A DNA stretch of 64,000 nucleotides from an uncultured Clostridia bacterium (lineage in GTDB: Bacteria; Bacillota; Clostridia; TANB77; CAG-508): the NCBI GenBank assembly GCA_947632585.1, contig CANRPS010000001.1, positions 1,919 to 65,918 of the forward strand. The letters run 5' to 3'. Below are positions 55,534 through 55,687 of the stretch, in pieces. Position numbers and translations under genes: made by a program. The notes beneath the pieces were generated by a model. It did no database searches, was not told the DNA's origin, and saw only the letters and a program-made list of their open reading frames with translations. Each line of letters starts with the position of its first letter. The stretch's first letter is position 1.

Positions 55534-55627
55534 AATAGTGCCTCCTTTCATTAAATAAAAAAATAGATATAATTAAAATAATAATAATTATTATCTTAAC
55601 TATATCTACTTAAAACAAAATACTTTT

Positions 55628-55687
55628 ATTTTGTGCAATGTTATATATTGAAAATAATCAAAAATATTGATAATATTACCTATTCCC
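55628..55687 (+). repeat. Right flanking direct repeat (attR candidate) with a dif-like imperfect palindrome
   Basis: ATTTTGTGCAATGTTATATATTGAAAATAA...TACCTATTCCCT. GTGCAAT-N7-ATTGAAA imperfect palindrome. Preceded by the hairpin ACAAAATA-N4-TATTTTGT (55615-55634). Confidence 0.7.

Follow-up and report, generated by a model that had tools for sequence, protein, structure and literature searches.

The window, the whole stretch of 64,000 nucleotides that was analysed, comes from an uncultured, low-GC Clostridia bacterium and harbours an inovirus-type prophage of ~6.2 kb (counting one repeat copy). The prophage lies between a glutamine amidotransferase gene and rho, which are indeed the flanking genes named in an earlier note on this DNA. 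Prophage genes were assigned by Pfam and PHROG matches, or from gene order alone where so stated.

7994-8974, minus strand: Xer-family tyrosine recombinase, 326 aa, candidate trans-acting enzyme
47964-48665: class-I glutamine amidotransferase, left-hand flanking gene
49359-49407, plus strand: conserved structured left flank, with a G-rich strand, a covarying hairpin (GGATACC...GGTATTT) and the polypyrimidine motif ACTCCTATCTCTTT
49408-49433, no strand assigned: intact 26-bp dyad, attL core and putative dif of the lineage, recognised by inverted repeat and conservation; left arm TTGCACAAAA (49408-49417), centre CTTTGA (49418-49423), right arm TTTTGTGCAA (49424-49433)
49423-49484, plus strand: left direct-repeat copy, 22-bp exact core and ~40 bp of diverged tail
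49485-55627, minus strand: inovirus-type prophage
49506-49521, plus strand: additional direct-orientation half-site within the element, reading GTTTCA and then TTTTGTGCAA
49595-49900: 101-aa ORF
49948-50469, opposite strand to the rest of the element: DUF2726 protein (PF10881)
50536-50706: 56-aa ORF
50711-51439: HUH rolling-circle Rep, intact (PF23343, 3e-23; phrog_3419, 4e-31)
51670-51942, 53664-53933 and 53933-54118: small membrane proteins, roles from gene order alone
51939-53657: adsorption-protein candidate, 572 aa, role from gene order alone
54054-54932: Zot/pI-like ATPase (PF05707 just over cut-off; phrog_197 also matches)
55003-55212: major coat protein, 69 aa (weak match to phrog_2186)
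55249-55551: ssDNA-binding-like protein, 100 aa, role from gene order alone
55613-55638, no strand assigned: hybrid site, attR core; left arm AAACAAAATA, centre CTTTTA, right arm TTTTGTGCAA
55628-55687, plus strand: right direct-repeat copy, 22-bp exact core and diverged tail
55957-57354, minus strand: rho, first host gene of the right replichore and conserved right-hand neighbour of the site

The small genome, HUH Rep, Zot/pI-type ATPase and short hydrophobic coat protein are those of an Inoviridae-type phage, and the element shares 73% DNA identity with bajarodino virus 41 (Inoviridae) over 20% of its length. A Rep-based scan of viral contigs found no relatives, and a search of viral contigs for the attP junction of the free circular phage gave 0 matches. 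In some sister inoviruses a non-coding region contains a classical XerD arm, perfect or nearly so (ATTATGTAAACT in bajarodino virus 41, and 1-mismatch versions in L103 and L106), which suggests a tendency in this phage group to mimic host dif.

The earlier note proposed that direct repeats containing a dif-like site bound the prophage, and the repeat pair is real. The 22-mer ATTTTGTGCAATGTTATATATT is present exactly at 49423-49444 and 55628-55649, with zero matches at up to 3 mismatches in any shuffle of the window. Past this core, 33 of 40 positions are identical with one gap, ending at ...TACCTATTCCCT, and the tail alignment score of 21 was not reached in any of 2000 shuffles (-1.8 ± 3.8). 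In the left copy all sequence to the right of the crossover would be phage-derived, and the tail of the right copy would be host flank towards rho.

At the left end, the inverted repeat TTGCACAAAA/TTTTGTGCAA at 49408-49433 forms 10 perfect pairs around a 6-nt spacer. At the right end, the arm AAACAAAATA matches at 5 of 10 positions and may be phage-derived, the centre CTTTTA has one mismatch and the right arm is perfect. A perfect dyad at attL and a degenerate left arm at attR agree with an attP that mimics the host site in part, as in IMEX phages. This anatomy, seen directly in the DNA, changes several details of the earlier picture. Of the hairpins said to precede both copies, the left one is genuine, but the right one is just a 7-bp match (ACAAAAT/ATTTTGT, 55616-55634). 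Identity does not lie left of a centre with divergence to its right: it begins inside the centre and continues rightward through the right arm, and it is in the left arm of the right-hand copy that the sequences diverge. The third half-site described inside the element does exist, with TTTTGTGCAATG exact at 49512-49523, 88 bp from the attL right arm, and five other elements (L016, L099, L158, L161 and L224) have similar ones at a distance of 41-61 bp from the core. However, it is a direct and not an inverted repeat, so no forked duplex site is possible and the likeness to the folded single-stranded attP of CTXphi is lost. In CTXphi the packaged strand folds two inverted dif-like sites, ~90 nt apart, into a forked duplex; no second inverted site of this kind was found near the element ends.

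The absence of a recombinase from the element, also claimed before, was observed directly. None of the element's ORFs of 120 aa or more resembles a tyrosine recombinase, its 10 ORFs gave no Pfam or PHROG recombinase match, and phmmer with the window Xer protein as query returned nothing inside 49485-55627; in lacking its own recombinase the element resembles IMEX phages. The gene at 7994-8974, 41 kb from the site, encodes the one tyrosine recombinase of the 64 kb; no phage-type integrase was found there. It remains the only candidate in the window, and the earlier note had pointed to it. Its product has the Pfam Phage_integrase and SAM-like N domains and scores 245, 230 and 209 bits against the NCBIfam models for XerC, XerD and archaeal XerA, respectively, all under the family cut-offs; the closest solved structures are XerD (2e-37) and XerA (6e-34), with XerH far weaker (1e-17). 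Its orthologues, 62-73% identical, are found 0.5-5 kb away from the dyad at 8 metagenome loci and in L004 and L008, and of the 44 loci with enough flank 15 have a Xer-like gene on the host side at a distance of at most 5 kb. No Xer-like gene was found within 10 kb of the site in L005, L007, L010 and L013, and two other tandem Xer-like genes adjoin it in L009 and L012. A TTTTGTGCAA half-site was not found near the promoter of the window Xer gene; the one further exact copy, at 23177 within a stretch reading as a short ORF from ~23032, is probably due to chance.

The prophage site coincides with the maximum of cumulative GC skew in the window (~49.0-49.4 kb), and the large ORFs are nearly all on the plus strand up to 48665 and all on the minus strand from 55957. 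In 7 related genomes the dyad lies at most 260 bp from the skew maximum, at the flip of gene orientation. Testable metagenome contigs, with 1 kb or more on each side of the dyad and oriented by its asymmetric centre, numbered 61; skew was positive to the left and negative to the right in 55 of them, and none had the opposite polarity. In one GC-richer contig, L197, the 26-mer is not accompanied by a skew switch. At empty sites the end of rho is 94-300 bp from the dyad, Rho being ~70% identical in the closest relatives. The left-hand neighbour genes are variable, and the amidotransferase and a sortase of the window have no homologues in related loci. Since all informative genomes share the synteny of rho and the site, the coincidence with the terminus is not phylogenetically independent, and it is also confounded by convergent gene orientation. 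The element occupies a conserved dyad where skew and gene orientation switch, and we infer that this dyad is dif, the site at which IMEX elements integrate.

Conservation was equally direct. The 26-mer TTGCRCAAAA-CTTTGA-TTTTGYGCAA, with R/Y allowed at one position per arm, occurs once per contig in at least 120 metagenome contigs and is also present in 9 related genomes. Relatives of the lineage include Clostridium sp. CAG:508. Uninfected relatives have a single copy of the site beside rho, in line with the empty-site check that the earlier note had proposed. With rho, the amidotransferase gene and Xer as queries, the same species was detected in 5 samples from a single ENA study, namely ERZ27249050, -059, -519, -546 and -555; each of its contigs reaching the site contains the prophage, and a search of metagenomes for the exact attB junction of a same-species empty allele gave 0 matches. 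The paired arm positions were A/T in 63, A/C in 25, G/T in 10 and G/C in 9 cases (Fisher p = 0.17). Judging from these counts, the arms vary independently, and what is conserved is the half-site sequence and not its pairing. Such independent variation fits a dimeric DNA-binding protein and speaks against a terminator stem. The near-perfect dyad, short asymmetric centre and terminus location are those of single-recombinase Xer/dif sites, and with its perfect 10-bp arms the site looks more like that type (XerL, XerS, XerH) than the classical one.

The earlier note had instead placed a classical dif within ATTTTGTGCAATGTTATATATTGAAAAT, with GTTATAT as the crossover and a folded single-stranded attP that included the third half-site. 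By inspection this stretch has a loose likeness to E. coli dif (GGTGCGCATAATGTATATTATGTTAAAT), and the 22-bp identity does stop near the proposed right arm. However, conservation among relatives stops at TGTT(ATATATT). The layout GTGCAAT-N7-ATTG(A)AAA has ATTGAAAAT as its right arm, which no relative conserves, and the conserved dyad, which had been taken for an upstream hairpin, lies 16 bp further left. The hybrid junctions of 38 other elements break at the CTTTGA centre and not at GTTATAT, and the third half-site, as a direct repeat, gives no duplex by folding. The conserved classical XerD arm, TTATGTnAAnT, is absent from the site as well. We therefore give this anatomy hardly any credence. 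The general idea behind it, insertion at a dif-like site by a recombinase acting in trans, is supported by the conserved terminus dyad and the integrase-less element.

Of the two ways suggested there for locating dif, the cumulative skew maximum agreed with the site, but consensus scans stayed at chance level. The classical consensus (11-bp XerC arm, 6-bp centre, XerD arm TTATGTnAAnT and an inner ATAA/TTAT dyad; PMC3025954) gave 39 pattern matches in the window against 31 ± 6 expected, and no consistent match above chance in 855 kb of related termini. A dif-like 28-mer at 5495-5525 (minus strand) was rejected, as it lies 44 kb from the skew switch and ~0.8 such matches are expected by chance, by our own estimate. 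In the literature, dif prediction was unsuccessful for two Clostridium genomes, and in two more the predicted sites lay ~175 degrees from the skew shift, which is implausibly far (PMC3025954).

The same crossover is used recurrently by other elements. Hybrid junctions on the rho side ('class R') number 28 unique cases at other loci and share the attR architecture of the window prophage, the degenerate arm matching at a mean of 4.7 of 10 positions; 10 junctions on the other side have a mean of 4.3 of 10. Each retains one arm and the centre, and the other arm looks random. Hybrid junctions of either side indicate that both arms are used, as for a true two-armed core site. Related inoviruses occupy the same place with the same polarity (L008, L010, L123, L158 and L161), and more distant inoviruses are also found at the site (L144, L159, L162 and L195). 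In addition, cargo islets of 1.2-7 kb (encoding, for example, Fic, an M29 peptidase or an LRR protein) lie on either side without a recombinase, and dsDNA phages with their own Xer-like integrases use the same core, which in at least 8 viral contigs lies ~400 bp from a Xer-like integrase gene; seven of these contigs come from UViGs of 31-43 kb. Elements on each side bring a replacement copy of the flank that they displace.

These junctions also bear on whether the phage HUH Rep (50711-51439) might have nicked a host hairpin and inserted the single-stranded genome. The Rep is present and intact and the target is able to form a hairpin, but long direct repeats with half a dyad arise by conservative site-specific recombination and not by HUH transposition. 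Moreover, Rep-less elements (the Fic and peptidase islets and the dsDNA phages) sit at exactly the same crossover, on which ground we reject Rep-mediated insertion as highly improbable.

The sequences around the dyad are structured. The polypyrimidine motif ACTCCTATCTCTTT abuts its left arm, and the left flank (49359-49407) resembles the terminator of the last plus-strand transcription unit. Folding of positions -66 to -1 gave -13.3 kcal/mol, as compared to -3.7 to -7.5 for nearby controls. The left flank favours the plus strand (p = 7e-5) and the right flank the minus strand (p = 3e-10). When a MAFFT alignment of the left flank was folded with RNAalifold, the dyad hairpin alone emerged, because the alignment was poor, and structure was assessed by per-sequence folds and swap tests. 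In these, native pairing of the upstream strand with the polypyrimidine motif was better than with swapped partners (p = 0.007), and the register of the outer helix shifted from sequence to sequence. Searches of the window region and six relatives against Rfam (e-value mode) gave no RNA gene match, and ARAGORN found no tRNA or tmRNA. The purine-rich motifs enriched beside the site are GGGTAGGAC on the left and AAGAGAGG-type on the right; these are unlike each other, and we make no claim of KOPS-like converging motifs.

Such flanks raise the main alternative, that the dyad is the hairpin of a transcribed non-coding module, a terminator or sRNA where the last two transcription units converge, used as attB much as tRNA, tmRNA or sRNA genes are, and that the inovirus borrows the integrase of a co-resident phage. 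On the plus strand the dyad is called terminator-like, with 10 pairs and the tail TGTTATATAT, and it lies between conserved, strand-specific structured flanks in which the native pairing outperforms the swapped one. The attP mimics ~50 bp of the host right flank and left-side elements carry a copy of the left module; a replacement flank is the classical mark of integration in a functional gene or RNA, which a 26-bp dif would not predict. Because many dsDNA phages direct integrases of their own at this core, as in the viral contigs above, a helper integrase could serve the inovirus. Against this, the arm sequence is almost invariant whereas the neighbouring hairpin covaries freely, and 23% of sites have a mid-stem A.C mismatch with no covariation between the arms. 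Neither an Rfam, tRNA or tmRNA match nor, in the 64-kb window, a phage-type integrase was found, many recombinase-less elements occur on both sides, and a host-type Xer gene lies near the site in a number of loci. The alternative also leaves the position of the site at the replichore junction unexplained. We consider it unlikely.

The explanation that we favour, with moderate confidence, is that an integrase-less inovirus entered by conservative site-specific recombination at a host dyad, the putative dif, through the host Xer. The attP of the prophage would recombine with the 26-bp dyad TTGCACAAAA-CTTTGA-TTTTGTGCAA at the replichore junction, downstream of rho. This dyad would be a non-canonical dif of the single-recombinase type with perfect 10-bp arms, and the enzyme would be the host Xer-family tyrosine recombinase encoded at 7994-8974. 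The attP appears to mimic the centre, the right arm and ~50 bp of the right flank only, its own left arm being degenerate. As attL keeps the host-type CTTTGA and attR has CTTTTA, strand exchange may be placed at or to the right of centre position 5. By integrating, the phage restores a complete dyad on the left, at 49408-49433, which would leave the host with a working site; the defective hybrid on the right, at 55613-55638, is expected to make excision less favourable. Recombination most probably acts on the double-stranded replicative form, as it does for VGJphi; a folded single strand of the CTXphi type is an unlikely substrate.

A wider reading, which we regard as possible but put forward tentatively, adds to an undescribed dif (the 10-6-10 dyad) and a divergent Xer a two-sided hub for mobile DNA with flanks acting in cis. 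Integrase-less inoviruses and cargo islets would enter on either side by mimicry of one arm, and temperate dsDNA phages would have domesticated Xer-like integrases targeting the same core. The structured flanks, re-created by every element, would be a required cis component, accessory or transcribed. We know of no chromosomal dif with a required structured-flank component.

To our knowledge, chromosome-dimer-resolution sites are not known for many Clostridia, and the 26-bp palindrome is probably the unrecognised dif of these gut members of the class. If so, it would provide a terminus marker and Xer target for widespread uncultured gut bacteria, and a further non-canonical Xer/dif type beside XerS, XerH, XerA and XerL. 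The IMEX strategy would then also be used by filamentous phages of Gram-positive anaerobes. The 26-mer would serve as a simple gut-metagenome probe for termini, integrated inoviruses and cargo islets, and its flanks would offer a testable case of a dif with obligatory flanking structure.

Among known systems, integration into the 3' ends of tRNA, tmRNA and sRNA genes resembles the present case in that the crossover lies in the loop of the dyad hairpin, a copy of the displaced flank is carried and the site is a hot spot for unrelated elements. It differs in that here no RNA gene is matched, the arms lack covariation, integrase-less elements dominate and the site is at the replichore junction. 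With XerS/difSL of streptococci and lactococci and XerH/difH of Helicobacter and Campylobacter (difSL, TTTCCGAAAA...TTTTCTTGAAA; difH, AGTTATGAAAA; PMC1914069, PMC5357621), the site shares near-palindromic arms ending in AAAA/TTTT at the centre and a recombinase gene that is often beside the site. However, the centre is 6 bp here as compared to 11 bp, gene and site are often but not always close together (in the window they are 41 kb apart), and the recombinase scores far better against XerD/XerA than against XerH (2e-37 vs 1e-17).

The IMEX phages of Vibrio (CTXphi, VGJphi, TLCphi; PMC5357621, PMC3089051) are likewise integrase-less inoviruses at the replication terminus whose attP, with one good and one poor arm, mimics the target in part; one junction restores an intact site, and several elements can stack at one site. 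In contrast, the host here belongs to the uncultured low-GC Clostridia, Xer dependence is putative, and the target is a perfect 10-6-10 dyad whose sequence bears no relation to that of the classical 28-bp dif. The attP of the window prophage has no inverted attP1/attP2 for a folded single strand, and it also mimics ~50 bp of flank.

Legionella dif was found through the 22-bp att site of a mobile element, part of a conserved 29-mer that has perfect 10-bp arms and lies close to the skew maximum, and XerL was proven genetically (PMC9765430). Our system differs from it in phylum, site sequence and recombinase lineage, the candidate enzyme here being nearer to XerD/XerA, and in a right-hand neighbour (rho) that is fixed and not variable. 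In other respects it parallels Legionella dif/XerL and LME-1: a non-canonical dif is revealed by a mobile-element att, a 22-bp core lies in a longer conserved sequence, the perfect 10-bp arms do not resemble any known Xer-binding motif, the site lies in an intergenic position close to the skew maximum, and integration leaves a modified downstream site.

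The repeat at 49423-49444 and 55628-55649 marks the ends of an integrase-less inovirus prophage, which was inserted at the replication terminus by conservative site-specific recombination. As had been claimed in an earlier note, the 22-bp core (ATTTTGTGCAATGTTATATATT) was exact at both positions, with no other copy in the window, and shuffled windows gave 0 matches to it, even with 3 mismatches. The diverged similarity described past this core was also recovered, with 33/40 matches and one gap over the next 40 bp up to TACCTATTCCCT (alignment score 21 vs -1.8 ± 3.8 in 2000 shuffles), as were the inverted repeat before the left copy (TTGCACAAAA/TTTTGTGCAA, 49408-49433) and a third half-site at 49512-49523. 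The tails of the left (attL) and right (attR) junctions were 83% identical. The anatomy drawn for the site was in need of correction, as the left junction is the intact site: the left copy is a complete dyad of two 10-nt arms around the centre CTTTGA, hereafter the 26-mer. The right copy has a phage-derived left arm AAACAAAATA (5/10 matches), the centre CTTTTA and a perfect right arm. Since attL retains the host-type centre CTTTGA, present in 103/107 unique sites, and attR has CTTTTA, exchange occurred at or to the right of centre position 5.

The ORFs of the element (49595-55551) were on the minus strand in all but one case and none was recombinase-like, in agreement with the claim that the element has no recombinase of its own. 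They include:

Within the element, minus strand: HUH rolling-circle Rep (PF23343, 3e-23; phrog_3419, 4e-31)
Within the element, minus strand: Zot/pI-like ATPase
Within the element, minus strand: coat-like hydrophobic protein of 69 aa
Within the element, minus strand: 572-aa protein, in the position of the adsorption protein
49948-50469, plus strand: DUF2726 / REase_MTES_1575-like gene, the sole opposite-strand ORF

Across 20% of its length, the element DNA was 73% identical to that of bajarodino virus 41, a circular inovirus of 5.4 kb from rodent faeces. Related inovirus prophages occupied the same position with the same polarity in L008, L010, L123, L158 and L161 (Zot 48-74%, Rep 63-74% identity), and more distant ones were present at the dyad in L144, L159, L162 and L195. 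No empty-site allele was recovered for the species, which was present in five samples of one study with the prophage in every case, and a search for a circular attP junction recovered none. The same DUF2726 gene was found alone between the dyad and rho in L129, L132, L143, L201 and L220, sometimes accompanied by the 101-aa ORF of the phage; there it would be left over from a phage or else form a small element of its own.

The cumulative GC skew of the window rose over 49 kb to a maximum at ~49.0-49.4 kb and then fell, and nearly all large ORFs were on the plus strand up to 48665 while all were on the minus strand from rho (55957) onward. Therefore, the element lies exactly at the junction of two replichores of its host, a spore-former of 26% GC (YabQ, sortase B, RelA, Rho). 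Ahead of the terminus, the final large operon (42805-47868) encodes a 1386-aa surface protein with weak intimin-like and LPXTG-type matches and, after it, a class B sortase. When one genome per species was scanned with Rho, no close relative emerged; the best matches (~70% identity) were uncultured gut Clostridia MAGs and Clostridium sp. CAG:508. Nine of these genomes had a near-perfect dyad directly downstream of rho, TTGCRCAAAA-CTTTGA-TTTTGYGCAA, usually with TGTT(ATATATT) after it, and the 26-mer was present in at least 120 metagenome contigs, in one copy apiece. The cumulative skew maximum was ≤260 bp from the dyad in seven relatives, where gene orientation flipped as well. Among the matches listed, 61 contigs had at least 1 kb on each side of the 26-mer; oriented by its asymmetric centre, 55 of them changed from positive skew on the left to negative skew on the right, and the opposite pattern was seen in none. 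The right-hand neighbour was rho in all cases, ending 94-300 bp from the dyad at unoccupied sites and kilobases away where there was an insertion, and the left-hand genes were variable. The GC-richer metagenome contig L197 is an outlier to this terminus rule, with the exact 26-mer (TTGCGCAAAACTTTGATTTTGCGCAA) between divergent housekeeping genes and no GC-skew switch. The coincidence with the terminus is not independent between genomes, because rho-site synteny is common to all informative ones; the convergent orientation of the genes confounds it as well.

The right arm originally assigned to the core, ATTGAAAAT, was conserved in no relative, and what had been described as a hairpin upstream of the core is actually the conserved dyad of the relatives. 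Each arm has one variable position (R in the left, Y in the right), and these varied independently (A/T 63, A/C 25, G/T 10, G/C 9; Fisher p = 0.17); thus, a quarter of the sites would have a mid-stem A.C mismatch. In the left-flank hairpin, by contrast, stem sequence changed freely and pairing was kept. The conserved feature of the dyad is the half-site sequence and not pairing, which fits a protein site rather than a stem. A lone half-site in direct orientation, TTTTGTGCAA(A/T)GTT, was observed on the host side at a roughly fixed distance (575-980 bp) left of the dyad in L004, L008, L009, L012, L013 and ~40 metagenome loci, sometimes upstream of a divergently transcribed xer gene (e.g. L203), and was absent from the window. 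It could be an operator or an accessory site.

The flanks of the dyad were conserved too, which is unexpected for a bare 26-bp dif. The left flank combines a G-rich strand (-50 to -40) with a covarying hairpin and, against the left arm, the polypyrimidine motif TATTTTACTCCTATCTCTTT. On the right, TGTT and a C-rich patch (+30 to +50) are shared by host flanks and phage attP. The left 66 nt folded at -13.3 kcal/mol, as compared to -3.7 to -7.5 in nearby controls, with the plus strand favoured (p = 7e-5); for the right 70 nt the minus strand was favoured (p = 3e-10). The flanks look like terminators of two convergent transcription units plus an additional motif.

49359-49407, plus-strand biased: left-flank module, also present in the same region (~-66 to -1 of the dyad) in L112-L231

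The polypyrimidine motif of this module (TATTTTACYCCTAYYYCTTT) was almost invariant. No Rfam family matched the module. It may be a terminator to which a motif for protein or RNA binding has been added, or it may belong to a small RNA. Three copies of a terminator-like unit AAACTCCTTAAAATCAATTTTAAGGAGTTTTTAT (48915-48960, 49081-49115 and 49265-49299) were also present within the 740-bp non-coding gap 48666-49407, and in many metagenome loci the motif CAGAATCGATTTTAAGRGGTTTTTAT is found again upstream of the dyad. This suggests that short transcription units or small RNAs are arrayed directly ahead of the terminus.

All loci together gave 124 unique intact dyads and 38 unique hybrids. In 28 of the hybrids the left arm is degenerate and the element lies on the rho side; in the remaining 10 it is the right arm, with the element on the opposite side. 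Only 4.3-4.7 of 10 positions agreed with the consensus in these arms, and the centre was kept in 31/38 hybrids. Hybrids being found on both sides, both arms of the dyad therefore serve as crossover partners, as expected of a true two-armed core site. Left-side islets, 2.7-6.6 kb left of the dyad (non-rho side) in L151, L157, L167, L168, L169, L174, L188 and L202, were bounded by the host left arm, the centre and a degenerate right arm, each with its own copy of the left-flank module. Their cargo included Fic, M29 peptidase and LRR proteins and no recombinase, and their ORFs were all co-oriented with the left replichore. Scanning viral contigs with the core gave at least eight matching contigs, of which seven came from UViGs of 31-43 kb. 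In each, a convergent Xer-like integrase gene lay ~400 bp from a site made up of a degenerate left arm, a centre that was CTTTGA or differed from it by one base, and the right arm.

L083, L086, L088, L090, L095, L097/L100 and L099 (IMG/VR): dsDNA phage contigs with a dyad-mimicking attP (centre and right arm)

A 40.7-kb viral contig started and ended with the 24-bp core AACTTTGATTTTGTGCAATGTTAT. The phage integrases were 45-61% identical among themselves and 34-43% identical to the host enzyme, and the contigs bear phage genes, including those for an endolysin-like protein and a Sak annealing protein. Thus, temperate dsDNA phages target the same core with their own Xer-like enzymes. Junction tails of L010 were nearly identical across 55 bp. 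Elements of either side had their own version of the displaced flank, the left-side ones bringing a whole second left module. Such a pattern marks insertion into a functional unit that extends beyond the dyad. Because of these flank copies, and because a consensus scan called the dyad terminator-like on the plus strand, the main rival explanation is that the dyad belongs to a structured, transcribed module that serves as attB, and that the inovirus relies on a helper integrase. We consider this unlikely, as the dyad arms showed no covariation, Rfam and tRNA searches gave no matches at the site, recombinase-less elements are abundant at the dyad, the 64-kb window has no phage-type integrase, and the host Xer gene is frequently, though not always, linked to the dyad.

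This host gene (7994-8974), rightly assigned to the Xer family in the earlier note, was the only tyrosine recombinase in 64 kb and is the candidate enzyme for integration. It scored 245 bits with XerC, 230 with XerD and 209 with archaeal XerA, each below the family cut-off; the nearest solved structures were XerD and XerA, and all catalytic-motif regions were visible on inspection. Its distance from the dyad is 41 kb in the window. In L004, L008 and eight metagenome loci, orthologues with 62-73% identity were much nearer, at 0.5-5 kb. A Xer-like gene was present within 5 kb of the dyad in 15/44 loci with at least 3 kb of left flank. Two other tandem Xer-like genes were observed on the host side of the dyad in L009 (6444-8606), L012 (12594-14573, fragmented) and nine metagenome loci (-1.2 and -2.2 kb). 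They share 33-41% identity with the window enzyme and with one another, and may represent a XerC/XerD-like pair or integrase remnants.

Xer-type integration at a dif-like site is the best-supported explanation, one that we regard as fairly probable. This general idea of the earlier note holds, while the anatomy it gave the site is replaced by a perfect 10-6-10 dyad of what appears to be the single-recombinase kind, and its analogy with the folded attP of CTXphi does not hold. Consensus scans found no classical dif at the window terminus or at related termini. Elsewhere in the window, the sequence AAGTATTATACTATGTATTATGTAAATT (5495-5525, minus strand), which is like a classical dif in its XerD arm (TTATGTAAATT) and overlaps the terminal part of a Wzy_C-like ORF, was rejected: the skew switch is 44 kb away, and by our own estimate ~1 arm of this type would arise by chance. 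By published prediction, no dif was obtained for two Clostridium genomes, and the sites of two others were placed ~175 degrees from the skew shift (PMC3025954). The XerD arm conserved in Firmicutes dif sites is of the ATTATGTAAACT type (PMC3025954). A perfect classical arm, ATTATGTAAACT and then ATGT, lies in a non-coding stretch of bajarodino virus 41 (~3975-4000, minus strand), and one-mismatch versions with the same ATGT were present in non-coding DNA of the Zot relatives L103 (~1518) and L106 (~4781). These sister free inoviruses are probably IMEX phages of hosts with classical dif. The group seems to imitate the dif of each host that it infects, thereby giving indirect support to the 26-mer as the equivalent site in this host lineage. 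In Legionella, LME-1 has a 22-bp att site inside a conserved 29-mer, which has perfect 10-bp arms and is close to the skew maximum; once LME-1 has integrated, the downstream site is a modified one (PMC9765430). That dif/XerL system was discovered in the same way as the present site, via the att site of a mobile element, and the closest parallels to the element and its site are the IMEX phages and XerL/LME-1.
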